Assembly: GCA_964528305.1 (NCBI GenBank) | Contig: CAZGSD010000002.1 | Span: forward strand, 93,409-157,408 | Reading direction: 5' to 3' | Length of the DNA: 64,000 nt | Source: an uncultured Candidatus Peribacteria bacterium | GTDB taxonomy: Bacteria; Patescibacteriota; Gracilibacteria; UBA1369 | In this document: positions 30,597-45,396 of the stretch, in pieces | Layout: every line of letters begins with the position of its first letter | How positions within the stretch are numbered: position 1 is the first letter of the stretch | The notes under the pieces: generated by a model | The model's input: the letters and a program-made list of their open reading frames with translations, nothing else | The model's database searches: none | Told to the model about the DNA's origin: nothing | Program-made: the position numbers and the translations under genes

Positions 30597-30646
30597 CTAT
30601 AAAAATTCAAGACAACCACAGCATAATCAATCTCATCAGAAATGTC

Positions 30647-30675: not shown

Positions 30676-30687
30676 ACGCCAGTATTC

Positions 30688-30764: not shown

Positions 30765-30857
30765 AGAACAAGACGCCTCATTAAAAAGGCTCTTTTAAAG
30801 AATATTATAAAAGCACCTCCACGCAAGCTATAACACATCAAAAAATCCTTTTAATTC

Positions 30858-30932
30858 TGGTTGCGGGGGTTGGATTCGAACCAACGACCTCCGGGTTATG
30901 AGCCCGACGAGCTGCCTCTGCTCTACCCCGCG
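30858..30932 (-). tRNA. initiator tRNA-fMet (CAU), CCA encoded
   Basis: The reverse complement CGCGGGGTAGAGCAGAGGCAGCTCGTCGGGCTCATAACCCGGAGGTCGTTGGTTCGAATCCAACCCCCGCAACCA has a C1/A72 mismatch and GGG/CCC in the anticodon stem. It is near-identical to E. coli tRNA-fMet. Confidence 0.9.
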
Positions 30933-30942
30933 TTGCCCGTAG

Positions 30943-30971
30943 AATCTACTGCAAAGAATAGTTTCTGTCAA
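30943..30971 (-). promoter_or_regulatory. sigma70-type promoter TTGACA-17-TAGATT for tRNA-fMet, embedded in the 3' end of the upstream CDS
   Basis: The minus strand reads ttgaca gaaactattctttgcag tagatt, followed by 10 nt and then tRNA position 1. Confidence 0.55.
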
Positions 30972-31356
30972 AGAAAAAGACCCACCATTTCTGCCCATTA
31001 CTGAGCCCCGCCAAATTACTATCCCGCTCATCCTGTAGAGACTGAAGCCCATCCGTTACCGGTGCCTGATTAGAAAGTATAATCACCTCCTCACCCGGAT
31101 TGACCAAACCAAGATTTTGCTTAGCAATCTTTTCTATATAATTAGAAGAAGTGAAATATTCATAATCTTCTGACTTCTGACGATTTTCAGACTCTATCCT
31201 GCGATTTTCAGATTCAAAATCAGCTATCACCCGGTCAATCTGATAACCACGATAAACCGATACGGTCAAAGTATTAAGCAGATAAATAACCAAAATCAGC
31301 TCTACAACTATCACTAATTTTGCTATATTCGAGGTCGGACTAAACTTAAAAGGCAT
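30946..31356 (-). CDS. FtsB/DivIC-like septum formation initiator (single TM helix plus coiled coil)
   Basis: TM helix IAKLVIVVELILVIYLL, then a coiled coil and YIEKIAKQNLGLVNPGEEVI, a typical family ending. I prefer the ATG at 31356 over the TTG at 31374. Confidence 0.6.
   Translation of the reverse strand: MPFKFSPTSNIAKLVIVVELILVIYLLNTLTVSVYRGYQIDRVIADFESENRRIESENRQKSEDYEYFTSSNYIEKIAKQNLGLVNPGEEVIILSNQAPVTDGLQSLQDERDSNLAGLSNGQKWWVFFFDRNYSLQ
31321..31329 (+). promoter_or_regulatory. extended -10 box TGCTATATT for murC, located inside the divergent ftsB-like CDS
   Basis: tgctatatt lies 34 nt upstream of the ATG at 31363. Confidence 0.4.
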
Positions 31357-31362
31357 AACCCA

Positions 31363-32760
31363 ATGTCTCATCAAACTTTAAAAGCTTTCCAAAAATACCA
31401 GAACATTCATTTTATTGGAATTGGCGGAATAGGAATAAGTGCTCTTGCTAGAATTTTGGCCAGGACAGGCCATCATATTACCGGATCAGACAACAGCACC
31501 AGCCACAACAGTGAATTACTTCAACAAGAAGGGATTATCCTTCACTCTGTGCATCAGGCGGAAAACATTCCACCACAAACCAACTTAGTGATACACACCA
31601 CGGCTATAGCCGATGATAATGTTGAGTTGCAGGCAGCTCGAAACAGGGGACTCACTATACTGACTTACCCACAGGCCATTGGTTTACTCACTAAGTCCTA
31701 TCGCAGTATTTGTATAGCAGGCACACATGGCAAAACCACCACCACGGCCATGCTGGGACTGATGATGGCAGCAGAACAAACGGATCCAACGGTCATTGTC
31801 GGAAGTCTGATCAAAGAGTTTGATCAGAAAAATGAAAGGCTAGGCAAGTCTCCTTGGCTGGTATTGGAATCCTGTGAATACAAAGACGCTTTTCTCAATT
31901 ATCAACCAGAAATAATTGTACTTACCTGTATTGATCCCGAACATCTGGATTATTTTAAAACAACAGAAAATTACCTGCAGGCTTTCATCAACTTCCTGTC
32001 CCGGCTGCCAGAAACAGGTGTATTGATAGCCAATATAGACGATGCCAATATCAAAAAAATTATTCAAGAAAATAACTGGAAATTCTCAATCATCACCTAT
32101 GGCACATCGCCCATAGCTGATTTTCAATTAAACCAGCATCAATTAAAATTACCATCCGGAAAAACATTAGAAGTAAATTTATCAATTCCCGGCCAACACA
32201 ATTTACACAATGCCTCAGCTGCTCTGACCGCATTACTACATCTACAGGGAAACAACACAGCGCCAAAACAGGCCCTAACTGCTTTAAACAACTTTCGTGG
32301 AGCCGCACGACGCTTCGAAATCAAAGGCCAACTTGGTAAAACTACGATTATAGACGACTACGCCCACACTCCCATGGAAATCCAGGCCACCATGCAGGGA
32401 GCTAGAGAACGGTTTGGCACAGAAGCAAAAATATTAGTTATCTTTCAGCCCCACCAATATTCCCGAACACATTTTTTCCTCAAAGAATTCGGACAATCTT
32501 TCCAAAACGCCGACCATGTATTCATCCCCAACATTTACCGCACCCGCGACAGTGAAGAAGATGTAAGCAAAGTCAACGTTGATCTATTGGTAGCAGAAAT
32601 CAACAAAAATCACCCCACCACCGCCCGCGCCTCCAACACCCACAGCCTCCCTGAAACATTACAAAAAACCCTCTCCATCGCCACACAATTTGACGTAATC
32701 CTCACCATCGGCGCGGGCGACATCACCAAACTCAGCGATCAGATTCTCTCAAGCTCCTGA
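31363..32760 (+). CDS. murC: UDP-N-acetylmuramate--L-alanine ligase
   Basis: IHFIGIGGIGISALARIL, CIAGTHGKTTTTAM, and the Mur ligase middle and C-terminal domains (DDYAHTP). Confidence 0.9.
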   Translation: MSHQTLKAFQKYQNIHFIGIGGIGISALARILARTGHHITGSDNSTSHNSELLQQEGIILHSVHQAENIPPQTNLVIHTTAIADDNVELQAARNRGLTILTYPQAIGLLTKSYRSICIAGTHGKTTTTAMLGLMMAAEQTDPTVIVGSLIKEFDQKNERLGKSPWLVLESCEYKDAFLNYQPEIIVLTCIDPEHLDYFKTTENYLQAFINFLSRLPETGVLIANIDDANIKKIIQENNWKFSIITYGTSPIADFQLNQHQLKLPSGKTLEVNLSIPGQHNLHNASAALTALLHLQGNNTAPKQALTALNNFRGAARRFEIKGQLGKTTIIDDYAHTPMEIQATMQGARERFGTEAKILVIFQPHQYSRTHFFLKEFGQSFQNADHVFIPNIYRTRDSEEDVSKVNVDLLVAEINKNHPTTARASNTHSLPETLQKTLSIATQFDVILTIGAGDITKLSDQILSSS

Positions 32761-34142
32761 GACCCATCTGGAGAGTCTTTCACCACATATCCTAAGCCTT
32801 TAATTGCTTCACGCAAGCGATCTGATTCAGCAAAATCTTTTTTCTGTCGAGCCAGCCCTCTCTCCGCTAATAATTTTGTCAATTCAATATCCACCACCAT
32901 TTCAGATTCAACCACATCCAACCCCAATCCAAACACTCGATCAAAATCCAAAACCGTCGCCAATTTAACAGCATCACTCAAATCAGACTTCAAAACTTCC
33001 CACAATACGCCCAAAGCCTCCGCTGTATTTAAATCATTATTAATAACTTCCATAAATTTAGCCCGATACGACGCATCAATCTCACCCGGAGCAACAAGTT
33101 TCTGCAGTTCCGTAACCTTACGACGCAACCTCTTCAATGCCGTCTGCGCCCCCTCCAAAGCCTCCCAGGTGAAATTCAACTGAATTCGATAATGCGTTCC
33201 CAAATTCAAATAACGAAAAGCCAAAGGATCAAAACCTTTATCAATCACATCCTGCACTAGATAAGCATTCCCTTCAGATTTCCCCATACGTCGACCATCC
33301 ACCATCATAAATTCTCCATGCAGCCAGTAATTCACATATTTCTCACCGTTAGCCGCTTCACTCTGAGCTATCTCATTTTCATGATGTATGGCTATGTGAT
33401 CAACCCCACCACAATGCACATCAAAATGCCTCCCCAAATATTTCATACTCATGGCACTACACTCTATATGCCAACCAGGAAAGCCTTTACGCCCCCAAGG
33501 AGAATCCCATTCCATCTGACGTTTCTCTCCCGCAGGCGTAAATTTCCAAAGAGCAAAATCAAAAGGATTTCTCTTATCTTCATTCAATTCCACTCGAGCC
33601 CCAACTTTTTTTTCAGCCAATTTTTGCCCGGATAATTTCCCATAATCCTGCCATTTACTGACATCAAAATAAATTCCATCAGAAGTTTGATAAGCATATC
33701 CCTTCTTTTCCAAATCAACCACCATAGCCAACTGTTCCTCAATATGATCAGTAGCACGAGGCATCAAAGCCGCTTTTTCAACATTTAATTTTCGGAGATC
33801 CGTCTCAAAAGCTTCTGTATAAAACCGGGCTATTTCCCAAGCATCACGCCCCTCCTTACGAGCAGCTTTCTCCATTCTATCCTCTCCACTATCTGCATCT
33901 CCCAAATTATCTCCGGTCAAATGCCCCACATCAGTAATATTCACAATCTGTTTCACCACCAAATCGTTATATTCAAACATTCGGCGCAAAATATCTTCAA
34001 ACAGATACATTCGCATATTTCCTAAATGCGCATAAGCATAAACAGTCGGTCCACAGCAATACATGGCCACCTTACCCGATTCAAGAGGAACAAATTCCTG
34101 CATTGACCGCCCCAAAGTATTAAAAAGTTTAATTGAATTCAT
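32739..34142 (-). CDS. cysS: cysteine--tRNA ligase
   Basis: CGPTVYAYAHLGNMR (HIGH region), GWHIECSAM (zinc site) and RMGKSEGN (KMSKS). The 3' end overlaps murC by 22 nt. Confidence 0.95.
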   Translation of the reverse strand: MNSIKLFNTLGRSMQEFVPLESGKVAMYCCGPTVYAYAHLGNMRMYLFEDILRRMFEYNDLVVKQIVNITDVGHLTGDNLGDADSGEDRMEKAARKEGRDAWEIARFYTEAFETDLRKLNVEKAALMPRATDHIEEQLAMVVDLEKKGYAYQTSDGIYFDVSKWQDYGKLSGQKLAEKKVGARVELNEDKRNPFDFALWKFTPAGEKRQMEWDSPWGRKGFPGWHIECSAMSMKYLGRHFDVHCGGVDHIAIHHENEIAQSEAANGEKYVNYWLHGEFMMVDGRRMGKSEGNAYLVQDVIDKGFDPLAFRYLNLGTHYRIQLNFTWEALEGAQTALKRLRRKVTELQKLVAPGEIDASYRAKFMEVINNDLNTAEALGVLWEVLKSDLSDAVKLATVLDFDRVFGLGLDVVESEMVVDIELTKLLAERGLARQKKDFAESDRLREAIKGLGYVVKDSPDGSQELERI

Positions 34143-34163
34143 AAAACATCAAAAAGTGGCCCC

Positions 34164-34202
34164 AGTTTATCAGGCAGCCACTCAAAAATCCATATTTTAT
34201 CA
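34164..34202 (-). promoter_or_regulatory. two tandem extended -10 boxes (TGATAAAAT and TGATAAACT) upstream of cysS
   Basis: The minus strand reads cctgataaaat (34194-34202) and cctgataaact (34164-34172), 52 and 21 nt before the ATG. Confidence 0.4.
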
Positions 34203-34222
34203 GGACCTTACCCCTCTACTTT

Positions 34223-34345
34223 AAGGAAGCTCTAAAAATCAGTTTTTACAAGGCGTCAAAAAAAAACTGAGGAGACAGTGTGCGTTACACGGCGACGATG
34301 ATTTTTTGAAGACAACGCAGTAAAAACTAATTTTTAGAGCTTCCT
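34223..34345. repeat. 123-nt element with 26-nt terminal inverted repeats; long hairpin after the surface-protein gene
   Basis: aaggaagctctaaaaatcagttttta (34223-34248) against taaaaactaatttttagagcttcctt (34320-34345). The single non-complementary position is a G-U pair in the minus-strand RNA. The inner tcaaaaaa/ttttttga stem extends the hairpin. Confidence 0.8.
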
Positions 34346-36538
34346 TCGCACCTTTTTTTTAGTAGTCCATACAGCACCCAAAGCAGCACTCGCCCCAAAC
34401 ACTAATAGCAGTTCAGGTCCAGTTTTCGCAGTATTATCTGGAAATGGTCCACTATAAGCAGCAGGCCTCAAACCATTGTCCAAGGGTTGCACAGGGAAAT
34501 CCGTCAAAGCAGTATTAATTTCCAAAGCAAATGGAATACTACTGATTATTTCACTACGCAAAGAACTTTCCTTACCCTCATCATCGATAGCCGTCACCGC
34601 AAAGAAATATTCCTTACCATTTTCTAAACCAGGCACATACCAGGTAGTACTAGCATCTTTGGTCAAAACAACCTGGGACAAAGATTTCACATCACTGCCA
34701 TAATATACTTTATAATTTTTAACCATTTTATCATCAGTAGCGGCATTCCATACCAAAGTAACGCGCTTATCGGATCCATACCCGATCAAACCATTTACTT
34801 GGGACGGAGCACCTGCCACAGGTTGCAATTCACCACCATTAGTAGGCGTCGCCCCAGTAGAGCCAGCATTGGCCACTGGACCTTTAACACTATTATCAAT
34901 CACAGCCCCAGCGGAATCGACAGTTATTTTGGCAGCCGCCTCATAAGTTTTTTCATTTTGCAATTCATCCACCAAAAGCACGCTCAAACTATAAGCTCCC
35001 GCGTCAGCTGGCGCTTGAATAGTACCGACATACACACTTGGATCATCAATACTGGCCGTCAGTTTGATAATATCAAAATTAAATAGTACTGCCGCCTGAG
35101 CCAAGCTTTTTTCACTATAAACCTTCACATTAATCACCGAACCAGCTTTGATGCCAGTACTTGGCTCCAAGACTAAATCTTCCAGCAGGGGAGCTTTAGT
35201 ATCTATATTTACACTAACAGGCTCAGAAGTACCGACTATAGCTGCAGTAATAGTATCCACATTGGTAACATACAAACTATGTGCACCATCGGTCAAAGCT
35301 GGCGTCTGAAAAGTAAATTTACCATTAGGTCCAACCGGCACAGATCCAATTTCCTGTGAATTATCAAATATTTTCATGGTTGAACTGGTTTTACCTGTAC
35401 CAGTCACAGTCTGCTCAGCTTGACTATAAGTCCCAGGTACTGGAGCGGTAATCATCGGTTTAACAGAACCAGCAGGTGCTGCGACAACAGCCCCACCATC
35501 ACCAACGACCACAGTCTTTTCTGCTTTTTTAAATTTATCCAACAAATCATTTACTACTATTTTATAAGTACCAGCCTTGGCAAAACTTAAGCCCAAATTA
35601 AACTGATGCTCACCTTGATCAGTAGCCAAAAACTTATAATTCGCTGGCAAAGTCACACCAGAGCTATTCTCACCTTCAGCTGAAAATCTAACAGTACCAG
35701 TATAATCAGACACTTTGACATTTTTCGAATCCACAGCCCGCACCTTGAAACTGACATTTTCATTGGGCTTAATGGTATTGGGCACATCCAATATTTCAAA
35801 TCCAGCCAAAGCCCCAGCATCCTGCGCATGAGCCCTCTGTATCACGTCTCCACCAATATCAGCCGTCAAAATAACATCATCCACAAAAGACACGGTAGGA
35901 CGTGCATCCAACAAAACATCTTCTCCTACATCCATCAAAGACAAATAAGACAGACCGGCCGCCCTACTTCGCACAGTAAAGTCAGCTTCACCGTTTTTAT
36001 CAGTATCAATTGTTGCAGGTTTAATTTCATCAGCTTTTCTGGAAGAAATTAGTTTCACAGCATGTCCATCCAACAAATTATTATAAGCATCTCTTAAAAC
36101 AACTTTCATTTCAAATGAATCCTGCCCATCAGCTTGTATTACAGTACGCCCATATTCCAAAGTAGAATTAAAGGCATCCACAGCAGCCGGGAAAACCATA
36201 AAACTGGTTTTATTAGTAAAACCATGGCGAATCGAATTTTCCGCCATTACATAATAAATTCCAGCTTTCTGAGTATGATAACCATCCAAATAAGCCACAG
36301 CACGACCAGAAGCGTCAGCTTTTACCGACATGTTAATGTTTAAACCATCGGCCTTTTCCACAACAAAATTCACTAACTGATTAGGAGGAAAATTACTGGC
36401 TTTCAAAATTGTTTCTTCACCAGCTATAGTGTCATTTCCAACCACATTGGCCGTATTTTGGGCAAGAACCACAGCCGTATTGGACAAAAACAGATTCAAG
36501 GCCATCAACATAGGAAGAATTTTTTTCACTGCGAACAT
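34334..36538 (-). CDS. large secreted surface protein with Ig-like (Big_1-type) and FN3 domains and a C-terminal sorting-signal-like anchor
   Basis: Signal peptide MFAVKKILPMLMALNLFLSNTAVVLAQ. Big_1-like segment SFEMKVVLRDAYNNLLDGHAVKL...DKNGEADFTVRS. FN3-like segment VTLVWNAATDD..NYKVYYG...YFFAVTAIDDEGKES. The tail is TAKTG, then a hydrophobic stretch, then KKKVRRKL. Confidence 0.75.
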   Translation of the reverse strand: MFAVKKILPMLMALNLFLSNTAVVLAQNTANVVGNDTIAGEETILKASNFPPNQLVNFVVEKADGLNINMSVKADASGRAVAYLDGYHTQKAGIYYVMAENSIRHGFTNKTSFMVFPAAVDAFNSTLEYGRTVIQADGQDSFEMKVVLRDAYNNLLDGHAVKLISSRKADEIKPATIDTDKNGEADFTVRSRAAGLSYLSLMDVGEDVLLDARPTVSFVDDVILTADIGGDVIQRAHAQDAGALAGFEILDVPNTIKPNENVSFKVRAVDSKNVKVSDYTGTVRFSAEGENSSGVTLPANYKFLATDQGEHQFNLGLSFAKAGTYKIVVNDLLDKFKKAEKTVVVGDGGAVVAAPAGSVKPMITAPVPGTYSQAEQTVTGTGKTSSTMKIFDNSQEIGSVPVGPNGKFTFQTPALTDGAHSLYVTNVDTITAAIVGTSEPVSVNIDTKAPLLEDLVLEPSTGIKAGSVINVKVYSEKSLAQAAVLFNFDIIKLTASIDDPSVYVGTIQAPADAGAYSLSVLLVDELQNEKTYEAAAKITVDSAGAVIDNSVKGPVANAGSTGATPTNGGELQPVAGAPSQVNGLIGYGSDKRVTLVWNAATDDKMVKNYKVYYGSDVKSLSQVVLTKDASTTWYVPGLENGKEYFFAVTAIDDEGKESSLRSEIISSIPFALEINTALTDFPVQPLDNGLRPAAYSGPFPDNTAKTGPELLLVFGASAALGAVWTTKKKVRRKL

Positions 36539-36566
36539 ATTTTTCAGTTTATTTTTAAATCTTCCT

Positions 36567-36575
36567 ATTATATCA
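36567..36575 (-). promoter_or_regulatory. extended -10 box TGATATAAT upstream of the surface-protein gene
   Basis: The reverse complement of attatatca is TGATATAAT, 28 nt before the ATG at 36538. Confidence 0.45.
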
Positions 36576-36610
36576 TAAAAAAGCTTTAAATTCAAACCAC
36601 CAAGCCAGAA

Positions 36611-37357
36611 ATGAGCATTATCAAACACAAACCCCTGCTTTTAGGTGCAGGATTGGCCATTTTAGGCGTAATTCTAGGGCTTTCAGGCCTAATTAGCCAC
36701 ACCATCCAAACCCTAATACTACAAGGATTCCCAGCCCCTTTACTCTATTTAAGCCTATCTTTACCTTTTTTAGGGCTTTTGATCAGCCTAACCAAGATAA
36801 TTATTGGTATGAACATCAACAACAATCTCATCCCAATTAGCCTTATTGGAGGCAGTATATTGATCGGGCCAATCAATAGTGTCAGTATTTTTCTAATCTG
36901 CCTGCTAATCAATTATTTTGCTAAAACAGCGACTAATCTCTTTCACCTTCATGTAGGAGTAAAAAACTCTCTATTTATCAGTATTGGCAGTCTCCTCCTG
37001 ATACTTTACCTCGGATTTTGTAATAACACCCCACAGACAGCCTCCCAAAGCGTTATTTATGGCTTAATTACTGTTTTAATCATCAATGAAAAGTTCCTAA
37101 CCTTCAAAATCAGTAAAACCAGTTTAATTAGCGACCTAAAAACAATAGGCAAAACACTATTTCTCGCTGCTATTGGTTATTTGCTACTAGGCGGCCAACT
37201 ACTTGGCTGGCAATGGCTCGGACTGCAAAACCTAATCATAAACTACCCAGAAAGCAGTTTACTCGCCATACTGGGCACCTTTTTGATCGGACAATATACC
37301 GGCCTACGACTGTCAGAAATCATCCGTTTCCGCAAACTTATCTTTAAAAATCACTGA
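36611..37357 (+). CDS. polytopic (7-8 TM) membrane protein, partner of the downstream ATP-grasp fusion
   Basis: 248 aa, almost entirely hydrophobic helices, ending in GQYTGLRLSEIIRFRKL. The stop overlaps the next ATG (TGATG at 37355-37359). Confidence 0.6.
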   Translation: MSIIKHKPLLLGAGLAILGVILGLSGLISHTIQTLILQGFPAPLLYLSLSLPFLGLLISLTKIIIGMNINNNLIPISLIGGSILIGPINSVSIFLICLLINYFAKTATNLFHLHVGVKNSLFISIGSLLLILYLGFCNNTPQTASQSVIYGLITVLIINEKFLTFKISKTSLISDLKTIGKTLFLAAIGYLLLGGQLLGWQWLGLQNLIINYPESSLLAILGTFLIGQYTGLRLSEIIRFRKLIFKNH

Positions 37358-39723
37358 TGTTTTTCAGAAATAGCGGCATCTTGGGGATTAACGCACGCAA
37401 TCTCCTTTATATCCGCCCCTACAATCAGGAAAAAAGTGTTGAATTTGCGGATGATAAGCTTAAAACCAAAGCATTTTTATCTGCTCGCGGCATTCCCGTA
37501 CCAAAACTTTTATCCGTTATCGGCAGTAAAGCTGAATTGGATAAATTTAATTTTCAAAAACTACATGCCGAATTTGTCCTAAAACCCAATCTGGGATATG
37601 GGGGGCAGGGGATTATACCAATTCTCAAAAAACATCATGGAGAATTCCTTGGCACTAAAGGGCAAATCTATAACAAAAACTATCTAATCGAACACATTCG
37701 CAACATACTCAGTGGCACTTTTGCAATTAATGAACAACAAGACAAAGCCTTTTTTGAAAAACTAATCACCACCGATGATATTTTAGGTAAATTTGCTTTT
37801 AACGGTCTACCAGACATACGTATCATTCTCTATAATCTCGTGCCAGTCATGGCTATGCTTCGCCTACCAACCGAAGAGTCCGATGGCAAAGCTAATCTAC
37901 ACCAAGGCGCTATTGGAGCTGGAATAGATCTCGCCAAAGGAGAGGTCACCCATCTACTACATAAAAACAGTATTATCAAAGAAATTCCTGGTCGCGGACC
38001 AATCAAAGGGTTAAAAATACCCTTCTGGGATGATATTTTACGCATAGCCGGCAAATCTCAATTAGCCTCCAATCTTGGCTATATGGGAGCGGATATCGCT
38101 ATAGACAAACACCACGGTCCAGTTCTACTGGAAATAAATGCCAGAGCAGGAATTAGCATACAAATGGCCAATCTAAGTCCTCTCCGCAAAAGACTGGAAA
38201 AATTAGATGGAATGCAAATCACTAGTGTAGAAAAAGGCATTCGTCTGGCCAAAGACCTCTTCGGCTATTCCATAGAAAAAAACATTAAATCTATTTCCGG
38301 TAAAAAAGTAATTGGTATTTACGAACATATTGATTTTTATCACGATAATCAAACAGTTAGCGCTCTAGCATTTATCAATAGTTCACGCAAAAAAAGCGCC
38401 GTTAGTCCAGATATAGCCAAACAACTGGGATTAATAAAATCAAAAAAACAAAAAGATTTGGAAAAAATAAATCTACGATTGAAATTCAAACTTGGAGGAA
38501 AAAAACTCACATCCATTTTCAAAATCGACAAAACCATAAAGAAAAAATATCAAGTAATTATCGGCAGTCGTGATTTAAGCGGATCTTTTTTATTGGATTC
38601 ATCCATCAACAACATCCTTGGCGAAAAATCCAAAGGGCCTGTTAAACACATTTTCATCAGTAATTACAATCCCATCGAAACTGATCGCCAAATCTGTAAA
38701 ATTAACAATCAATTAAAACTCTTAAGTTATTTCCGCCCATTAAATTTTCATGAAGAAGCAAATAAATTTCGCCAAAACAAAAATTACAACCCTCAATTCA
38801 TCTACAAAGACTACGATCAGGAAACATCCAATCTCAAAAAAACTCTACAAAAAATCAAATATGACGATAGCGACCTGGGCATACTCTTTCACAAAAAAAT
38901 CTCCGAACTAGATAATTATCTCAATCTAATCAAAAGCAGGGGACAGAGGGAGTTTACCGAACTTTCCAAAGAGATTTTTGGATTTCCCTCAAAACAAGAC
39001 TTATTGGAATTATCAGAAAGAATAGATCCAGAAAAAGCAGCCGGCAAACTCAAACAATACACCTCGCTGGAATTGAAACAGATTTTCGAACATATACTAC
39101 ATGACTATGGACTACACGAATGGCGTGTACTGCTCAAAGAAAGCATGCTCAGCAAATGTATCGTCAATCGAAATCGAACCATTATGATCAAAAAAGACTC
39201 GCTATTCAATGAACAACGAGTCCGTGATTTAATCATTCACGAAATAGAAACACATCTCTTCACCACCGAAAACGGCAGTAAACAAAAGTATCGTCTTTTC
39301 CATGTTGGTTTCGCTAATTATTTGGAAACACAGGAAGGTTTAGCCATACACAACGTTCTATCCAGAGGAAGTCTTTACAGCGAAGATGGTCATAAAGAAA
39401 TTCTAACCGAAGCAATCTACCTGGCTGATCAGCTCTCACTAAGCGATCTCTATCAGGAGATAAAACAAAAAGGGTTAAACGAAAAAAGTGCCATGGATAT
39501 CTGCTTTAGAGTTAAAAGAGGTCTGTCAGACACATCACAAGGTGGAGTTTTTAGCAAAGATTATTGTTATTTCAGCGGCAGGAAAAAAATCAAGAAATTC
39601 CTAGATAATGGAGGGGATTTACGAGACTTGTATTTTGGTAAATACAGTGTCGACGACCTCCAGCTAATCAAAAACATCTCTTCATTCCAAACACCGCCCC
39701 TATTACCAAAATGGCTAATCTGA
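37357..39723 (+). CDS. fusion protein: N-terminal RimK/TTL-like ATP-grasp ligase plus C-terminal DUF1704 (MATCAP/QEGLA family) HExxxH metallopeptidase
   Basis: ATP-grasp motifs: FVLKPNLGYGGQGIIPI, DIRIILYNLVPVMAMLRLPTEESDGKANLHQGA and MGADIAIDKHHGPVLLEINARAG. C-terminal half: IIHEIETH (HExxxH, nt 39238-39255) and YLETQEGLAIHN (QEGLA, nt 39331-39345). Confidence 0.75.
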   Translation: MFFRNSGILGINARNLLYIRPYNQEKSVEFADDKLKTKAFLSARGIPVPKLLSVIGSKAELDKFNFQKLHAEFVLKPNLGYGGQGIIPILKKHHGEFLGTKGQIYNKNYLIEHIRNILSGTFAINEQQDKAFFEKLITTDDILGKFAFNGLPDIRIILYNLVPVMAMLRLPTEESDGKANLHQGAIGAGIDLAKGEVTHLLHKNSIIKEIPGRGPIKGLKIPFWDDILRIAGKSQLASNLGYMGADIAIDKHHGPVLLEINARAGISIQMANLSPLRKRLEKLDGMQITSVEKGIRLAKDLFGYSIEKNIKSISGKKVIGIYEHIDFYHDNQTVSALAFINSSRKKSAVSPDIAKQLGLIKSKKQKDLEKINLRLKFKLGGKKLTSIFKIDKTIKKKYQVIIGSRDLSGSFLLDSSINNILGEKSKGPVKHIFISNYNPIETDRQICKINNQLKLLSYFRPLNFHEEANKFRQNKNYNPQFIYKDYDQETSNLKKTLQKIKYDDSDLGILFHKKISELDNYLNLIKSRGQREFTELSKEIFGFPSKQDLLELSERIDPEKAAGKLKQYTSLELKQIFEHILHDYGLHEWRVLLKESMLSKCIVNRNRTIMIKKDSLFNEQRVRDLIIHEIETHLFTTENGSKQKYRLFHVGFANYLETQEGLAIHNVLSRGSLYSEDGHKEILTEAIYLADQLSLSDLYQEIKQKGLNEKSAMDICFRVKRGLSDTSQGGVFSKDYCYFSGRKKIKKFLDNGGDLRDLYFGKYSVDDLQLIKNISSFQTPPLLPKWLI

Positions 39724-39737
39724 ACCCCAACTTGACA

Positions 39738-40754
39738 TCATAAAAGCAACATTCCATCACCAAAAGAAAAAAATCGCCTATTTCGTAATATAGCCAGGCG
39801 ATATAACTGTAAGACTTTATTTTTTCCAATCCAAGCCGCCACCAGCAATAACAACGTACTTTTCGGCAAATGAAAATTAGTAATCAAACCAGAAATAACC
39901 CTCCACCGATAACCTGGCTCAATCATAATCGAAGTCCGATAATCTCCAGCTACAAATAAGCCAAAACGTCCATAATTATCTTCCAACACCCTCACCGCTG
40001 TAGTTCCCACCGCTATAATACGCCGCCGCTGTTTAATATATTTATTCAAACGTATAGCAGTATCACTAGCGATATTATAAGCTTCTTCATGCATATGATG
40101 ATATCGAGTATCACTAGCTTTAACCGGTAAAAAAGTCCCCAATCCTACCTCCAACGTCACAAATTCCAACACTACACCTTTTGCTCTTAAACGCCCCAAT
40201 AATTCGGGAGTAAAGTGTAAACCAGCAGTCGGTGCCGCCACACTTTTCCCATCATGACGAGCATAAACAGTATTATAATCGGCATCCTGAGACTGCCCTG
40301 CGTCTATATATGGCGGCACCGGCATAGCCCCATAACTATATAGATACTCCATCAGCCCAGTCTGCGAGAGATCACAACTCAAATAGCGAAAGCCCTCATC
40401 ATCAATTTTTTCAATCTTAAAATCCACTCCATGCACCTTAACCGTCTGCCCCAGTTGAAAAAACTTCCCAGGACGAACCATCACTTTCCAATAATCACCT
40501 GCCAATTCCAAGAAAAAAATCTGCATTTGACGACCATTCTGTTCAAACAGTAAACGAGCCGGCATCACTCTAGAATCATTAAACACTAAAACATCACCCG
40601 GCCCCAAATATCGAGGCAAATCAAAAAAATGGCCATCATCTATCACCTTACCATCACGTGCCACTACCAACATACGAGCATGATCACGTGGAACAATCGG
40701 CTTTTGCGCTATAAGCTTTTTAGGCAAATCAAAGTCAAAATCAGCAATACGCAT
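39738..40754 (-). CDS. queA: S-adenosylmethionine:tRNA ribosyltransferase-isomerase
   Basis: MRIADFDFDLPKKLIAQKP, PTAGLHFT and AVGTTAVRVLE. Confidence 0.9.
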   Translation of the reverse strand: MRIADFDFDLPKKLIAQKPIVPRDHARMLVVARDGKVIDDGHFFDLPRYLGPGDVLVFNDSRVMPARLLFEQNGRQMQIFFLELAGDYWKVMVRPGKFFQLGQTVKVHGVDFKIEKIDDEGFRYLSCDLSQTGLMEYLYSYGAMPVPPYIDAGQSQDADYNTVYARHDGKSVAAPTAGLHFTPELLGRLRAKGVVLEFVTLEVGLGTFLPVKASDTRYHHMHEEAYNIASDTAIRLNKYIKQRRRIIAVGTTAVRVLEDNYGRFGLFVAGDYRTSIMIEPGYRWRVISGLITNFHLPKSTLLLLVAAWIGKNKVLQLYRLAILRNRRFFSFGDGMLLL

Positions 40755-40802
40755 AATAAAGAAACATTATACCCGCCAATTCTGCCCTAAAATAGCCAAA
40801 AA

Positions 40803-41966
40803 TCAATTTGTTTTTGCCGGTTCAGCACTCCACCGCTCTTGCTTATGATCAATCACAGCCTGACTTTCCACACCGTCCTCTAAACGCTTAATAACAACAA
40901 GTGTAACATCGTCCTCCTGTACATGCTCCTCTACAAATCTGGAAAAATCACGAGCAATATTTCTACTAATATCCTGAGCCCCCCCTTGAGAACCATAAAG
41001 AGATACTAATTGTTTCAACCTTTCCAATCCAAACATTTCCCCCTTCATATTCCTAGCTTCTGTAATACCATCGGTATAAAGCACCATCACGTCACCAACA
41101 GCCATTTCAACTTCCTGTTCTTTCACTATTTTACTATTATCAGCCACCATTCCCAAGGCTATGCCACCGCTAGCAGTAGCAGTAACTTCACCACTAGCAG
41201 CCTTATAAAGAACTAAGTGTTCATGTCCACACCCAACATAAGTCATTTTTCGAATTTCCGCGTCCCATTTAAGCATCAACATGGTCATAAACATCGTAGC
41301 ACGTATGCGCTTTTTTAAACGCCTATTAGTATTCACCACAATTTCCTTTGCAGTTGTGTATATTTCCGCATAAGCATTAATCAAAGTATTTACCATAGTC
41401 ATCACTATCGCTGCTGGCACGCCATGACCAGTCACATCACCCACGTAAAAATAAGTAGATTTACCCACCTGTATAAAATCCAAATTATCTCCTCCTAATT
41501 CCTCAGCAGAACGATTTTTAACAGCTATGTCAAAACCAGTAATAGTCGGCGCCTGCACCGGCATTAACTCTTTTTGTAATTGTCCAGCCGTCCTCAGTTC
41601 TCCAGACACTCTACGACTTTCAGACAATTCATCAGTTACTTTTTCCAAACTAGCGGTAATTTCATTGAAAAAATGCGCAAAAATACCGATTTCATCAGTA
41701 CGTTCAGTATATATTTTCTTATATTTCCGCCCCGTCAAAATAGCCTTTACCTGATCTAAAACGGCTCTTAGAGGAACAACCATATCCACATAATAAACCA
41801 AGACCGCCAAGAGCAAACAAAAGACCATCAATATCATTACCTCCACCCAATTAAATACAGCTTTTCCTAACAAATAAGATATTCCTCCAACTATCACCGA
41901 TATAGCCGCCATCAGCAGCAAGAAATGTACATAAATTTTCTTTTTTAAATAAGCCTTACTCAGCAT
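40803..41966 (-). CDS. membrane-bound PP2C/SpoIIE-type phosphatase with HAMP domain (RsbU-like)
   Basis: Two TM helices. HAMP signature TDEIGIFAHFFNEI. PP2C signatures GGDNLDFI, YFYVGDVTGHGVPAAIVM and LYTDGITEA. Confidence 0.85.
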   Translation of the reverse strand: MLSKAYLKKKIYVHFLLLMAAISVIVGGISYLLGKAVFNWVEVMILMVFCLLLAVLVYYVDMVVPLRAVLDQVKAILTGRKYKKIYTERTDEIGIFAHFFNEITASLEKVTDELSESRRVSGELRTAGQLQKELMPVQAPTITGFDIAVKNRSAEELGGDNLDFIQVGKSTYFYVGDVTGHGVPAAIVMTMVNTLINAYAEIYTTAKEIVVNTNRRLKKRIRATMFMTMLMLKWDAEIRKMTYVGCGHEHLVLYKAASGEVTATASGGIALGMVADNSKIVKEQEVEMAVGDVMVLYTDGITEARNMKGEMFGLERLKQLVSLYGSQGGAQDISRNIARDFSRFVEEHVQEDDVTLVVIKRLEDGVESQAVIDHKQERWSAEPAKTN

Positions 41967-42324
41967 AGTCTATACTGGTTAAACACTCAGAAAGCCCATC
42001 ATAATGATGCACAGTTTCCAAAATACCAACCACTCGAAGCACATCCAAAACCTGTTTAACCGCCCCAACCAAAACTAGATTAGCATTACGGGTTTTTAAA
42101 GTCTCGTTGATCTCTAAAAGCAATCCAATCCCTTCGCTATTAATAAATTCTAATTTCGAAAAATCCAAAATCAAAAATTTCCCATGGAAATCGCTTACCA
42201 ATCGGGAAATTTCATTTCTATGAAGTTTCAATCCAAAGGAATCCAAAGCCCCAACAAAAGAAATCAAACAAACCTTCGGTTTAAAATTTGAGTCAACCTG
42301 TAACGATAAATGTTCCTGTGACAT
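41956..42324 (-). CDS. STAS-domain anti-sigma-factor antagonist (RsbV/SpoIIAA-like), copy 1
   Basis: 122 aa. ILDFSKLEFINSEGIGLLL contains the phosphorylatable Ser position. It overlaps the phosphatase gene by 11 nt. Confidence 0.8.
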   Translation of the reverse strand: MSQEHLSLQVDSNFKPKVCLISFVGALDSFGLKLHRNEISRLVSDFHGKFLILDFSKLEFINSEGIGLLLEINETLKTRNANLVLVGAVKQVLDVLRVVGILETVHHYDGLSECLTSIDYAE

Positions 42325-42353
42325 GTAATTAATAAGGATGAATAAATCCTGTT

Positions 42354-42362
42354 ATTATATCA
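42354..42362 (-). promoter_or_regulatory. extended -10 box TGATATAAT upstream of the STAS-PP2C operon
   Basis: The reverse complement of attatatca is TGATATAAT, 30 nt before the ATG at 42324. Confidence 0.45.
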
Positions 42363-42372
42363 CAAAAAGCCA

Positions 42373-42960
42373 TTACACATCAAACCGGACAAAACGTACC
42401 ACTTTGATGTTTTCTCCCAATTTAACAATAGATTCCCTCACCAAAGCTTCAATTGTCTTATCTCCATCTTTGATAAAAGCCTGTTTCATCAAGGAAAACT
42501 CCTCTCTGGCTTTTTTCTCTTTATTCTCCAAAATCATGGCTATTTTATCCTCCGGTTTTCCCTCACTTTTCAACTGTTCAATCCAAATAGACTTTTCTCT
42601 AGCAATAAACTCATCACTAATATCTTCCGGATTCAATGCTTTTGGATTGGCAGCCACCACTTGCATGGCAATATCATTAGCCAATTCAATAAACTGCTCA
42701 TTTTTAGCGACAAAATCAGTTTCACAAGCCAAATGAACCAAGGCTCCAACCTTACGATTACTATGCACATAAGCATGAACCACACCCTGTCCAGTAGTAC
42801 GATCAGATTTTTCCGCAGCCTTAGCTTCGCCCTTTTTACGTAAAGCATCAACAGCTTTTTCAAAATCGCCATTATGTTCCTCCAAAGCCTTCTTACAAGC
42901 CATCATTGAGGCTCCAGTAGCTTCGCGTAAATTTTTCACATCATCAAGAGATACAGTCAT
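42373..42960 (-). CDS. tsf: elongation factor Ts (short form)
   Basis: MTVSLDDVKNLREATGASMMACKKALEE (UBA-like N-terminus) and HSNRKVGALVHLACETDFVAKNEQF. The ORF-track extension to 43188 is low-complexity and overlaps the upstream gene. Confidence 0.9.
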   Translation of the reverse strand: MTVSLDDVKNLREATGASMMACKKALEEHNGDFEKAVDALRKKGEAKAAEKSDRTTGQGVVHAYVHSNRKVGALVHLACETDFVAKNEQFIELANDIAMQVVAANPKALNPEDISDEFIAREKSIWIEQLKSEGKPEDKIAMILENKEKKAREEFSLMKQAFIKDGDKTIEALVRESIVKLGENIKVVRFVRFDV

Positions 42961-42994
42961 GCTTTTATAATTTATTGAATATTTATAATAAAAC

Positions 42995-43873
42995 TTATTT
43001 AGATGGATTCTGCATACCAGCATCAGTAGAAGACGCAGAATTAACTGGTGCCCCCTGAACAGGAGCCGTTGTAGTAGCAGCATTTCCAGCAGATGATGCG
43101 GCTTGAGCAGGAGGCACAGCAGCCGCAACTGGAGCGGTATTTTCTGCCTTCTCCTTCTGCAAAGTATCCTGTCGCACATCATAATCATTTTTCGCTACAC
43201 CAACCTGACCGGTAATATTTTCTTTGGACGTTTTAGCCATCCACTCAATTGGAATTAAATCAGCCACAGGCCCCAATACTGGCATTTTCCACCAAAAACC
43301 ATAAGCAGCCAAATACATGGAGTAAGCTCCTGCAACCAAACAAAACATTGGCACCAAACCAATCAACAAAGCCAAAAACTCTCCTAATGGTCCTAAAACA
43401 GAAGCAATCACAGCAAACATTCCAACAAAGAAAAACAACAATGACAACAATAATCCTTGTTTAGCATGCAACCTAACATAAGCGCTATCAGGCTTGATAA
43501 TAATCGACAACAAAGCCACAAAAGGCAAGTAAGCTAAAGCCGCATAAATCTTGTCTTCCTTATTTACAGGTGGCTGATTACCTTTTTCCGGATTGATTAT
43601 TTGAGACAGAAGACTACCAGCCTTCACAACTCCCGCCTGTCCCAGATTCTGAACCTGCTCTACACCAGCTTTCCCTAGATTAGTCACCTGTGATTTTGCC
43701 TCACCACCGAGATCCTGTAACTTATTTTGAGCTGTTTGAGCTAAATTTTGGGCCTCCTGTTTGACAGTATCTTGCAAACCTGCCGCAGAAGCTCCAGGCT
43801 GCTGACTGGAAACCCCAGAAGCCTCACCAGCAGAGGGTGTAGCACCAGACTGATTATCCATTGTATTTTGCAT
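42995..43873 (-). CDS. membrane protein, DUF4870-like core with repeat-rich N-terminal and A/P/T-rich C-terminal tails
   Basis: KIYAALAYLPFVALLSIIIKPDSAYVRLHAKQGLLLSLLF plus further TM helices. It lies between rpsB and tsf. The family call is tentative. Confidence 0.5.
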   Translation of the reverse strand: MQNTMDNQSGATPSAGEASGVSSQQPGASAAGLQDTVKQEAQNLAQTAQNKLQDLGGEAKSQVTNLGKAGVEQVQNLGQAGVVKAGSLLSQIINPEKGNQPPVNKEDKIYAALAYLPFVALLSIIIKPDSAYVRLHAKQGLLLSLLFFFVGMFAVIASVLGPLGEFLALLIGLVPMFCLVAGAYSMYLAAYGFWWKMPVLGPVADLIPIEWMAKTSKENITGQVGVAKNDYDVRQDTLQKEKAENTAPVAAAVPPAQAASSAGNAATTTAPVQGAPVNSASSTDAGMQNPSK

Positions 43874-43897
43874 GTCTATTGCTGTTATAAAGTTGTT

Positions 43898-44590
43898 TTA
43901 TTTTTTATCTCCCTTTTTCCCTTCTACTAAAGACTTTTGCACACGGGAAACTACATAAGTCAAAGCAGACAAAGCGTCATCATTAGCCGGGATAACATAA
44001 TCAACCCCATCCGGATCCGCATTTGAATCAGTGATAGCCACCACTTTAATATTCATTTTATTGGCTTCCTTGACCACAATCTTATCTCTCACTACATCGG
44101 CCACGAAAACCACCGCAGGCAATCTATCCATCTCTCTCACCCCACCGAAAGCATCCTGTAGCTTAACTAGTTCTTTTTTAATACGAGCTATCTCTTTTTT
44201 AGTATATTTCTCCAGCTCACCACTTTTCTCTTGTGCCAGCAAGTCATTAAAATACTTAATGCGCTTTTTGATAGTAGAAAAATTAGTCAAAAGTCCAGGC
44301 ATCCATTTATTCACAACATATGGCATACCAGTCGCCTTAGCAGCATCCATAATCAAACGAGCCGCTTGTGGTTTGGTACTAGCCAACATGACAGTTTTCC
44401 CACTAGCCGAAGCCTGTTTGAGAAACTCCATAGCCTCATCCAAGTAAGCAGCGGTCTTATCCAAATCAAAAATATGAATACCGCTTTTGGATCCATATAG
44501 AAAAGGTTTCATCTTTGGATTCCACCTTTGAGTTTGATGGCCAAAATGCATGGCCGCATCCATCATTTCCTTTACCGTTGTTTTTGACAT
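43898..44590 (-). CDS. rpsB: 30S ribosomal protein S2
   Basis: MMDAAMHFGHQTQRWNPKMKPFLYG and VFVADVVRDKIVVKEANKMNIKVVAITDSNADPDGVDYVIPANDD. Confidence 0.95.
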   Translation of the reverse strand: MSKTTVKEMMDAAMHFGHQTQRWNPKMKPFLYGSKSGIHIFDLDKTAAYLDEAMEFLKQASASGKTVMLASTKPQAARLIMDAAKATGMPYVVNKWMPGLLTNFSTIKKRIKYFNDLLAQEKSGELEKYTKKEIARIKKELVKLQDAFGGVREMDRLPAVVFVADVVRDKIVVKEANKMNIKVVAITDSNADPDGVDYVIPANDDALSALTYVVSRVQKSLVEGKKGDKK

Positions 44591-44768
44591 ATATCCTTTT
44601 GGTTAATTTATCCCTTCTTCTTGCGCATTGCCTATGACGCACCGCCACAGGAGGATTTCGCAATCCGGAGATAAACTTGAAATAAAACAAGACGAATCTA
44701 TTATATTTGAACGGTAAAAGCAAGCCTTTCCAATGACTTTCAGAGGTTTTGACAAAAATCCCATAAAC

Positions 44769-44777
44769 TGATATGAT
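44769..44777 (+). promoter_or_regulatory. extended -10-like box TGATATGAT upstream of the rsbW-like gene
   Basis: tgatatgat lies 28 nt before the ATG at 44805. Confidence 0.35.
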
Positions 44778-44804
44778 AATAAGACACCAAAGAGCTCAAA
44801 GCCA

Positions 44805-45371
44805 ATGGAAAACACAGCAACAAATAATAACAACGAAAACACTCAAGCGGCAAGCCAAACTAAGCCGCTACCAGTGGTAATCACTATCAGTATGCCTACT
44901 CAGACTTATTTTGTCTCTGGCATACGGGATTTCACCTTGAATTTGATCAAAAACATGACCAGTTTCAGTGAACAATGGGCTTTCCGATTTCAATCAATAG
45001 TCGATGAACTATGCAATAACGCCATAGAACACGGCTCCCGCACCGGAGAAACCATTAAAATTATTTTCGAAAGCCAGTCACAAGAATACATTCAAATCAC
45101 CGTCGAAGACTCCGGTACAGCAGCCAAACACCTCAAAGCAGCTGAAATCACTAAACTAGTTAATGAAAGAAAATCACAAACCGTCTTAAATGGACTCATT
45201 CGCGGCAGGGGATTACCCAAGATTGTTGCTGAATGGACAGATGAAATGGAATTTTCTGACCTGGCCAATGGTGGCATCAAAGCCAGAGTACGCAAATATC
45301 TCAAAGACCCCGCTTTACAAGAAACATCTCCATCCAGTCTTGAAAGTCCCAGCCATATCGTGCTTAATTAA
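44805..45371 (+). CDS. RsbW/SpoIIAB-type anti-sigma Ser/Thr kinase (HATPase_c)
   Basis: N box ELCNNAIEHG, G1 VEDSGTA and G2 RGRGLPKI. Confidence 0.8.
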   Translation: MENTATNNNNENTQAASQTKPLPVVITISMPTQTYFVSGIRDFTLNLIKNMTSFSEQWAFRFQSIVDELCNNAIEHGSRTGETIKIIFESQSQEYIQITVEDSGTAAKHLKAAEITKLVNERKSQTVLNGLIRGRGLPKIVAEWTDEMEFSDLANGGIKARVRKYLKDPALQETSPSSLESPSHIVLN

Positions 45372-45396
45372 AACAAATAACATTTTTAAAAAAGAC

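Follow-up and report, generated by a model that had tools for sequence, protein, structure and literature searches.

Within a 64,000-nucleotide stretch of contig CAZGSD010000002.1 from an uncultured Candidatus Peribacteria bacterium, which is called the window here, we found a two-gene, translationally coupled operon that encodes a 248-residue membrane protein and a 788-residue enzyme with three domains. Judging by its domain content, the locus is a compact variant, from the Candidate Phyla Radiation (CPR), of the rloABC/rimBK kind of system, a kind that is itself biochemically uncharacterised. This assignment was made because a retropepsin-like third domain, an RloB-type seven-transmembrane (7TM) core and an RloC-type ATP-grasp ligase occur together in it. 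The mechanism that we favour, with about as much confidence as doubt, is that amino acids are added to a C-terminal carboxylate at the expense of ATP and are also removed again, by an enzyme docked on a 7TM protein that localises or gates both activities. The features of the operon, found from the open reading frame (ORF) calls and the comparisons given in brackets, are the following.

36611..37357, + strand, gene of the 248-residue membrane protein (ORF call; Pfam; upstream homologs; hhalign).
37289..37333, + strand, residues 227-241 of the membrane protein, its conserved C-terminal tail, GQYTGLRLSEIIRFR (alignment A4; Legionella RloB alignment).
37355-37359, + strand, TGATG stop/start overlap joining both genes (ORF coordinates).
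37357..39723, + strand, gene of the 788-residue three-domain enzyme, presumably cytoplasmic (ORF call; Pfam; NCBIfam; AlphaFold2).
37357..38256, + strand, predicted ATP-grasp amino-acid ligase domain, RloC / TIGR02291-like, residues 1-300 (PF14397; TIGR02291; Foldseek).
38302..38601, + strand, retropepsin-like (RimB/RloA-type) domain, residues ~316-415 (AlphaFold2 confidence; Foldseek; PF05618 scores of relatives).
38377..38385, + strand, NSS in place of the catalytic D-T/S-G, residues 341-343 (family alignment).
38665..39720, + strand, predicted MATCAP/DUF1704-type zinc metallopeptidase domain, residues ~437-788 (PF08014; phmmer; Foldseek).
39238..39255, + strand, HEIETH, predicted HExxxH zinc-binding and catalytic motif, residues 628-633 (alignment with human MATCAP).
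39331..39345, + strand, QEGLA motif, residues 659-663 (alignment with the EEGLA of human MATCAP).

The final A of the TGA stop codon of the membrane-protein gene is also the first base of the enzyme ATG. Both ORFs, their overlap and all of the motifs quoted in an earlier, sequence-only reading of this DNA were located as described there by ORF translation and residue position, and the Pfam E-values of the two enzymatic domains, given below, put these motifs well outside chance. Across the 80 related loci introduced below, the enzyme and 7TM genes overlap or are at most 100 nt apart in 61, mostly at distances of -1, -4 or a few nucleotides. An AlphaFold2 model of the enzyme, built on 121 homologs, showed a mean predicted local distance difference test score (pLDDT) of 82.6 and revealed three folded modules, at residues ~30-300, 316-415 and 437-788. 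The sequence-only reading had placed its two enzymatic halves correctly in the first ~300 and the last ~350 residues, but the region between them (residues ~316-415) proved to be a folded third domain and not a linker. Upon comparison of the model with the Protein Data Bank (PDB) by Foldseek, human MATCAP ranked first, followed by RimK, LysX/ArgX, Ddl and cyanophycin synthetases. Pfam detected no membrane domain in the enzyme, which is presumably located in the cytoplasm. Members of the family are annotated automatically as 'tyrosine/phenylalanine carboxypeptidase domain-containing protein' or as 'alpha-L-glutamate ligase-like protein / TIGR02421 family'. In what follows, the invariance of enzyme residues refers to an alignment of 121 family sequences, and the Legionella RloA, RloB and RloC sequences compared are those of Legionella adelaidensis plasmid 5.

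The N-terminal module was highly similar to ATP-grasp ligases of the RloC type. PF14397 (ATPgrasp_ST) matched residues 14-283 with an E-value of 6.8e-61 and 206.4 bits (cutoff 31.4), a match that spans positions 2-276 of the 278 in the model, and the best NCBIfam model was TIGR02291, 'alpha-L-glutamate ligase-like protein' (E 8.8e-83). The best annotated homolog was Legionella RloC, with 39% identity over 306 residues (E 2e-70). As for the structure, Foldseek matched the domain to RimK (5zct) with an E-value of 5e-7 and found RimK, LysX/ArgX and Ddl at probability 1.00; DcsG and the cyanophycin synthetases 7wae and 7ta5 were also among the matches. The characteristic motifs were located at residues 76-85 (KPNLGYGGQG), 152-157 (PDIRII), 179-185 (ANLHQGA) and 257-265 (LLEINARAG). 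In particular, K76, G83, G85, D153, R155, D246, E259, N261 and R263 were invariant, and the motifs KPN..GG.G, PDIR, NLHxGA and EINARAG were invariant or almost so. We therefore predict amino-acid ligation by an RloC/RimK-like ligase whose catalytic motifs are intact. It is not a RimK equivalog, as its score on TIGR00768 was 48.9 bits against a cutoff of 143.4.

The sequence-only reading had assigned this half to the RimK-like clade of ATP-grasp enzymes, which Pfam, NCBIfam and Foldseek all bore out, and had also likened it to tubulin tyrosine ligase (TTL), which they did not. The window protein showed no match to PF03133 (TTL/TTLL), and the sole trace of TTL was a marginal 21-bit match in one relative (L094). 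We consider the ligase RimK-like and not TTL-like, and rejected the TTL analogy for it, because Foldseek ranked RimK high and placed no TTL among the top 50 structural matches. Additionally, the N-terminal segment of the enzyme, GILGINARNLLYIRPYN (37357-37443, residues 1-29), was almost invariant in the family, and its GILxINxRN part was common to Legionella RloC. The pLDDT of these 29 residues was ~32-52. Such low confidence in the model is as expected for a region that folds only on a partner, and the segment is a candidate for contact with the 7TM protein.

The C-terminal module was found to be a member of the MATCAP family, as the sequence-only reading had proposed. PF08014 (MATCAP, formerly DUF1704) matched residues 471-775 with an E-value of 1e-45 and 156.7 bits against a cutoff of 27. 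A phmmer search of the PDB sequences identified human MATCAP/KIAA0895L (7z5g; E 1.2e-12, identity ~22%), which was also matched by Foldseek (E 6.7e-12); the matches to 7z5g and 7z6s ranged from E 7e-12 to 9e-11 with target template modelling scores (TM-scores) of 0.64-0.66, and the pLDDT of the domain was mostly 88-97. Identity to the Sinorhizobium QEGLA protein was ~27%. Upon alignment with human MATCAP, HEIETH corresponded to HEIGTH, TQEGLA to TEEGLA, and KRGLSDTS...FSKDYCYFSG to KRGQTDTS...FSKDQVYLDG, so that both the HExxxH motif and the glutamate of the QEG motif lined up with those of the human enzyme. H628, E629, H633, Q659, E660 and G661 were invariant, and the motifs HExxTH, QEGxA, KRG..DTS and F[TS]KD were invariant or almost so. 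The catalytic residue of human MATCAP is E281, within HExxxH, and its EEG motif has been described as the putative third site of metal binding (PMC10499314); by alignment, the QEGLA glutamate is the probable third metal ligand of the window enzyme. The catalytic motifs of the metallopeptidase are intact, and carboxypeptidase action on a C-terminal tail is predicted. The MATCAP-family enzymes TMCP1/2 remove C-terminal tyrosine and glutamate and shorten polyglutamate chains (PMC10499314).

The middle domain (pLDDT 81) was retropepsin-like in structure. Modelled alone and compared with the PDB, it matched the DDI1 RVP domain, Pseudomonas RloA (9g58), RloA2 (9g59) and a Legionella DUF785 protein (2pma), all with a Foldseek probability of 1.00, and all 25 matches with E ≤1e-3 were retropepsin-like. 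The overlay with RloA 9g58 comprised 129 aligned columns with a query TM-score of 0.54. The window domain alone had no match in Pfam. At the same position, relatives scored 31-38 bits on PF05618 (cutoff 27), and, when 19 middle domains of the family were excised, 11 matched gag-asp_proteas and 10 matched Asp_protease_2, with a best E-value of 2e-4. The alignment of the middle-domain family profile to the single Legionella RloA by hhalign was weak and not significant (E 0.022). Because the window domain has no Pfam match of its own and the hhalign result was weak, its assignment to PF05618 rests on transitivity and fold.

This middle region is conserved in the family and often reads A-K-[IM]-D-T-G-x-x-R-S ... 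I-I-G-x-R-D-L-x-x-F-L-I-D. The first position of the D-T/S-G site is aspartate in 75 of the 121 family members (DTG in 40), asparagine in 42 and serine in 4, the site being lost in ~38%. Canonical D[TS]G was found in 15 of the 80 species genomes, and in each of the five species genomes that also have a short 7TM gene, asparagine occupies the catalytic position. With NSS at residues 341-343, the window domain is probably not catalytic and probably has a structural or binding role here. The aspartic site is dispensable, since D-T/S-G varies while the ATP-grasp and MATCAP motifs stay near-invariant.

A hydropathy scan of the 248-residue protein revealed about eight hydrophobic segments, namely an N-terminal anchor and a 7TM core. 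The sequence-only reading was right about the hydrophobic nature of the protein and its 7TM core, but its '7TM' did not take in the anchor. Given an N-terminus inside, every lysine and arginine lies on loops that are predicted to be cytoplasmic by this hydropathy-based topology. By itself, the protein reached 21.6 bits on PF14402 (7TM_transglut; E 1.7e-4, cutoff 25). Its upstream homologs at 76 loci, which were identified by phmmer at E-values of 1e-6 to 5e-51 with one at 9e-4, reached 79-119 bits in Pfam scans with PF14402. Moreover, a 7TM family profile that includes the window protein matched residues 309-503 of Legionella RloB, the 7TM half of an annotated 'inactive transglutaminase family protein', with an hhalign probability of 99.3 and an E-value of 2.6e-20. 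We counted the window protein as a 7TM_transglut member because of this family profile and the homolog scores.

As evident from alignment A4, an ectodomain of ~280 residues is cleanly missing from the window form, in which the N-terminal anchor joins the 7TM core directly. By this alignment, the 248-residue protein is a short, ectodomain-less form of the RloB-type 7TM_transglut family. The usual upstream 7TM protein has ~480-630 residues, and more than 400 in 69 of the 76 loci. Among the 80 loci, the short form (~255-276 residues) was found only in the window and its five closest species (L001-L004 and L008); it shows 30-44% identity across the five other species and is also present in unrelated metagenomic lineages. 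The two long forms that were scanned with Pfam (L005 and L059) contained a PKD domain and 7TM_transglut at 91-119 bits; the inactive transglutaminase domain PF14400 had no Pfam match in these two CPR proteins and is absent from the 248-residue protein. In six aligned long forms (L005, L011, L023, L045, L059 and L069), the ectodomain was composed of the PKD domain and a conserved domain of ~170 residues that has no Pfam match. At the C-terminus, G227, G231, L232, R233, E236, F240 and R241 were invariant in A4, giving the pattern G-x-x-x-G-L-R-x-x-E-x-x-x-F-R, and this tail motif also aligns with Legionella RloB. The tail is predicted to be cytoplasmic and is a candidate docking site for the enzyme. 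No relative of the 7TM family with a solved structure, solved transporters included, was detected.

The architecture of the membrane protein bears on an explanation that differs from the favoured one, in which the pair would be a polymer synthase with export. The enzyme would make a free poly-amino-acid (poly-alpha-glutamate-like) or a short peptide, the 7TM protein would translocate it, and the peptidases would prime it or limit its length. Cyanophycin synthetases are among the structural matches (7wae and 7ta5), one of them with a built-in hydrolase site that makes primers, and the large PKD-containing 7TM ectodomain of most relatives suggests an extracytoplasmic function. This explanation is also in line with the production of free poly-alpha-L-glutamate by RimK, with the rlo phenotypes in Pseudomonas, which concern the envelope, osmotic tolerance and cell shape, and with the periplasmic location of RloA (PMC11957051). 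In Photobacterium, a QEGLA gene, the adjoining gene annotated as GshB and rimK are co-induced at low salinity (PMC10308900). However, the 7TM family resembles no solved transporter and has no known transport activity, the ectodomain is lacking in the window form and in several other lineages, and both peptidase-type domains are fused to a cytoplasmic enzyme. We consider synthesis for export somewhat unlikely.

The fusion is widely distributed. A word-indexed search returned more than 120 full-length proteins (~785-813 residues, 44-98% identity) with the same Pfam pair, the longest of their contigs measuring 1.49 Mb. When one genome per species was scanned, 80 full-length loci were retrieved, including complete chromosomes of 1.3-1.5 Mb. 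The closest genome match to the window was L001, with 70% identity. In an exhaustive phmmer search of 1.84 billion cluster representatives, 607 proteins were found at E ≤1e-30, many of them three-domain proteins, with identity down to 30%. The labels of 79 of the 80 loci were Peregrinibacteria, Peribacteria, Gracilibacteria, Altimarinota, Patescibacteria group or 'uncultured bacterium'. The lone non-CPR label belongs to L027 (JAUVQE010000042.1, Nitrospirota), a contig of 7.7 kb with a long 7TM gene upstream of the fusion; misbinning, and not a true presence of the system beyond the CPR, probably explains the label. A same-strand 7TM homolog was present upstream in 76 of the 80 loci, and the other four have at most 145 nt of upstream sequence. 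The 7TM gene was thus found in every locus with upstream DNA, at L050, by way of exception, 1.7 kb from the enzyme gene.

The half-length membrane protein and the degenerate retropepsin motif are what gave rise to the idea of an assembly artefact or a decaying pseudogene, with a mis-joined fusion and a 7TM remnant. No evidence supports it. The architecture of ~790 residues occurs in more than 120 proteins and 80 species genomes and on complete 1.3-1.5 Mb chromosomes, the motifs of the ligase and the metallopeptidase are intact, and the short 7TM form is conserved across species. We rejected this explanation, to which we give next to no credence. The fusion that the sequence-only reading had described is genuine, and profile searches, structural comparison and linkage to the 7TM gene all spoke for that reading.

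Relatives with other arrangements revealed which parts belong together. P0181 (916 residues) contained ATPgrasp_ST, PF05618 and MATCAP, all three above the Pfam cutoffs, and P0189 and P0180 contained ATPgrasp_ST and PF05618. A metagenome scan seeded with a two-domain relative identified the parts as three separate genes in L094, L095 and L098. These split loci encode an ATPgrasp_ST + PF05618 protein (428-429 residues), a MATCAP-like protein (419-426 residues; PF08014 scores of 104 bits for L094 and 75.5 bits for L095) and a short 7TM protein (307-310 residues; PF14402 at 79 bits in L094), and in L094 the three genes are consecutive with gaps of 2 nt. L105 combines a short 7TM gene with an ATP-grasp...MATCAP protein, and at L093 and L103, which have a short 7TM gene and a two-domain enzyme, no MATCAP gene was detectable. 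Because the parts that make up the window enzyme and its 7TM partner are spread over three separate adjacent genes in other metagenomic loci, they appear to work together. This fusion and fission pattern strengthens the inferred write/erase or synthesis/trimming mechanism.

The conserved fusion of ligase and carboxypeptidase and the operon linkage would fit a sequential maturation pathway as well as a cycle. In such a pathway, the MATCAP domain would trim a residue or propeptide to expose an acceptor, which the ATP-grasp domain would then extend. In the tubulin cycle, detyrosination comes before re-ligation. TMCP1 proceeds stepwise, yielding delta-1 and then delta-2 tubulin (PMC10499314), and a pathway of this kind would escape futile cycling. 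We nevertheless consider it decidedly unlikely, as the surroundings of the operon yielded no candidate substrate whose C-terminus is conserved and L093, L103, P0178 and P0189 have no MATCAP part. Since some relatives lack MATCAP, trimming is not an obligatory first step everywhere.

The third enzyme position is modular. P0177 contained ATPgrasp_ST and PF05618 followed by a YdjC-like domain in the place of MATCAP; in P0202 (854 residues), the C-terminal half had no domain assignment. For these variant architectures, the members of the sequence clusters carried almost no taxonomy. YdjC is of the carbohydrate deacetylase type, and its presence is among the points in favour of a non-protein acceptor. 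The ATP-grasp domain would then amidate a carboxylate, which may belong to a glycopolymer of the envelope, to a lipid-linked precursor or to a small metabolite (e.g. an osmolyte-type dipeptide), the MATCAP-like domain would be an amidase, and the 7TM protein would present or flip the substrate. The same is suggested by the Pfam name of PF14397, 'sugar-transfer associated ATP-grasp', by the Ddl, LysX/ArgX and DcsG enzymes among the structural matches, and by the proteobacterial QEGLA proteins, which sit with FGase and GshB-like small-molecule enzymes. In contrast, no glycosyltransferase or sugar gene was found in the window operon, by structure and by sequence the ligase is closest to enzymes that ligate peptide and protein tails, with RimK first, and all characterised enzymes of the MATCAP family act on protein C-termini (PMC10499314). 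A non-protein acceptor is very unlikely in our view.

For the favoured mechanism of addition and removal at a C-terminal carboxylate, we propose the following steps. The enzyme would dock on the cytoplasmic face of the 7TM protein, with the C-terminal GLRLxExxRFR tail of the latter and the N-terminal GILGINARN segment of the enzyme as candidate contacts. Amino acids would then be attached by the ATP-grasp domain, either at the C-terminal carboxylate of a protein or peptide or at the end of a homopolymer that is being extended; the analogy with RimK makes L-glutamate the most plausible choice. The MATCAP domain would strip C-terminal residues and thereby set or reset the length of the tail, while the apparently dead retropepsin-like domain may act as a scaffold, mediate dimerisation or bind the tail. 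The two opposing activities would be localised or gated by the membrane partner.

Several observations weigh against this mechanism. Without regulation, ligase and peptidase activities within the same chain would lead to a futile cycle, and no regulator was evident. RloA is periplasmic, whereas the peptidase-type domains of the window enzyme must be cytoplasmic, so the rlo and window systems may process different intermediates. No substrate was identified in the window: no precursor-peptide ORF was found in the two-gene operon, no window ORF other than one unrelated membrane protein has a conserved acidic C-terminus, and a tblastn search of the window with an approximate Escherichia coli S6 query found no S6 gene. 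Neither family model reached its curated cutoff, with 277.9 bits for TIGR02291 (equivalog cutoff 314.2) and 166 bits for TIGR02421, 'QEGLA motif protein' (E 1.4e-48, cutoff 338.65), and the PF14402 score of the membrane protein taken alone was also below the cutoff. The name given to PF14397 indicates another class of acceptor. Finally, the literature searched contained no published biochemical activity for any ATPgrasp_ST / TIGR02291 member, so glutamate as the substrate amino acid is an analogy only.

A bolder form of the mechanism is a membrane-gated machine for a 'C-terminal tail code', with writer and eraser on one polypeptide that is switched by the 7TM protein. In this form, MATCAP would have arisen in bacteria as an antagonist of ATP-grasp ligases and been recruited to tubulin later, and the target would be envelope-related or osmotic, at which the rlo genetics of Pseudomonas hints. 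We regard it as unlikely.

The neighbouring genes were also compared. A divergent gene precedes the operon.

34334..36628, - strand, 764-residue Big_1/Big_13/fn3 surface protein (ORF list; domain scan).

With the GTG start listed for it (36628), this gene overlaps the 7TM gene; translation more likely begins at ATG 36538 (MFAVKKILPM..., signal-peptide-like), which would leave a divergent intergenic region of 72 nt. The C-terminus of this protein resembles a sorting signal, with TGPE, a hydrophobic helix and a KKKVRRKL tail, a pattern found in no other ORF of the window. In about 50 related loci a homolog is the divergent neighbour of the 7TM gene, and [ST]GP[EG], a transmembrane segment and basic residues are retained by most of the complete homologs, with a variable tail. 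The surface protein was set aside as a substrate, as its C-terminal tails vary. Further upstream are cysS and murC. Downstream, convergent with the operon, queA ends 14 nt past the enzyme gene and is followed by a SpoIIE phosphatase and a STAS protein. The block of cysS, surface protein, 7TM protein, enzyme, queA, SpoIIE and STAS recurs in 31-56 related loci; because it also takes in cysS and queA, we read it as lineage synteny and not as functional linkage. Two modules of the partner-switching type were present, a SpoIIE-family phosphatase with STAS (40803-42324, - strand) and an HATPase_c_2 RsbW-like kinase with STAS (44805-45807, + strand). Promoter and terminator scans at the operon gave results at chance level. 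The GC content was unremarkable, at 35-40% in the operon and 36-44% in the flanks. The GC skew of the + strand was negative in every 1-kb window over 30000-46000 (-0.15 to -0.43), independently of gene orientation.

The sequence-only reading had considered the operon the best candidate for an uncharacterised system. The kind is indeed biochemically uncharacterised, but the locus is not an orphan, being a variant of rloABC/rimBK. The combination of ATP-grasp, 7TM_transglut and peptidase is already known from comparative genomics and Pseudomonas genetics. In the literature searched, which did not cover the survey of Iyer et al. 2009, we found no description of the ATP-grasp/retropepsin-like/MATCAP fusion, its CPR distribution, the ectodomain-less 7TM form or the recurrent bacterial pairing of ATP-grasp with MATCAP. 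The locus is thus not a categorically new system; it is a natural experiment on Rlo-type function and on the origin of the MATCAP family. Through natural gene fusion and fission, the CPR variant constrains what Rlo-type systems may do. A retropepsin-fold module and a MATCAP-family carboxypeptidase are physical working partners of the ligase, and conservation is found at the catalytic centres of ligase and metallopeptidase, while the aspartic site and the ectodomain are dispensable. These constraints direct attention to C-terminal addition and removal at the cytoplasmic face of the membrane. Retention in most sampled Peregrinibacteria/Gracilibacteria genomes despite their small size suggests an important role for the system. 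At least two independent combinations show that bacteria recurrently pair MATCAP-type peptidases with ATP-grasp ligases, and the family, known only from the tubulin code, is thereby given a prokaryotic context.

We compared the window operon with systems already described. Neither of its proteins matched any PADLOC model of anti-phage defence. The system most similar to it was rloABC. The operon of Legionella adelaidensis plasmid 5 encodes, in order, a PF05618 protein (152 residues), a PF14400 + PF14402 protein (508 residues) and an ATPgrasp_ST protein (314 residues), with a 4-nt overlap of the rloB and rloC genes; this order matches the rloA-rloB-rloC arrangement of Pseudomonas. The name RloC is also borne by an unrelated anticodon nuclease. 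In Pseudomonas aeruginosa and P. fluorescens, RloA proteins are secreted, periplasmic retropepsin-like proteases, and the operon influences how the cells tolerate antibiotics, form biofilms, keep their shape and survive hypo-osmotic conditions (PMC11957051). When rloB or rloC is deleted, the defects of a triple rloA mutant in osmotic behaviour, biofilms and morphology are suppressed (PMC11957051), which fits a ligase/membrane pair making something that the peptidases must process. RloB has been reported to be 96% proteobacterial (PMC11957051). The window operon shares with rloABC the full-length ligase with its 39% identity to Legionella RloC, a 7TM_transglut partner gene directly upstream with a stop/start overlap, and, as part of the system, a retropepsin-fold module that is probably of the PF05618 type. 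In contrast to the secreted RloA, the retropepsin-like module of the window is fused to the cytoplasmic ligase and its catalytic aspartate is gone. The membrane protein of the window has no ectodomain, whereas its long-form relatives carry PKD; moreover, the window system adds a MATCAP-type zinc peptidase, and its host is a CPR bacterium.

The authors of the rlo study relate the operon to rimBK, in which RimK glutamylates ribosomal protein S6 at its C-terminal end and RimB binds and regulates RimK and trims the glutamate tail (PMC11957051). The RimK-RimB(-RimA) system is similar to the window operon in that a cytoplasmic RimK-like ATP-grasp enzyme is paired with a cytoplasmic retropepsin-like protein, and RimK is the best structural match to the ligase after the MATCAP matches. 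The two differ in that RimK has no membrane partner or metallopeptidase and the window has no S6 gene. Human MATCAP/TMCP1 (KIAA0895L) and TMCP2 share the fold of the C-terminal domain, and the HExxxH, [QE]EGLA and KRGxxDTS...F[ST]KD motifs align residue by residue. On a C-terminal tail, these eukaryotic enzymes oppose the ATP-grasp ligases TTL/TTLL, and they are able to remove glutamate (PMC10499314). The bacterial domain, unlike the human enzymes, is fused to its presumed opposing ligase, of which TTL is not the closest relative, and has no tubulin or microtubule-binding context.

Proteobacterial QEGLA loci are also similar to the window operon in that the gene of a MATCAP-family peptidase adjoins that of an ATP-grasp ligase. 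On pSymB of Sinorhizobium meliloti (L081, 4406-8207), the order is FGase, QEGLA and GshB-type ATP-grasp, and Vibrio sp. HDW18 (L082, 5110-7101) encodes an FGase-MATCAP fusion. The proteobacterial MATCAP/QEGLA proteins have an N-terminal extension of ~250-320 residues or an FGase domain. RS17025, the QEGLA gene of Photobacterium, adjoins RS17020, annotated as the glutathione synthase GshB, and both are induced at low salinity, as is rimK (PMC10308900). In contrast to the window operon, the ATP-grasp protein of these loci is of the GshB type (PF02955) and not ATPgrasp_ST, an FGase-type amidohydrolase is the third partner, and there is no 7TM gene. Judging by these domains, the proteobacterial loci are a second, independent association of ATP-grasp with MATCAP.

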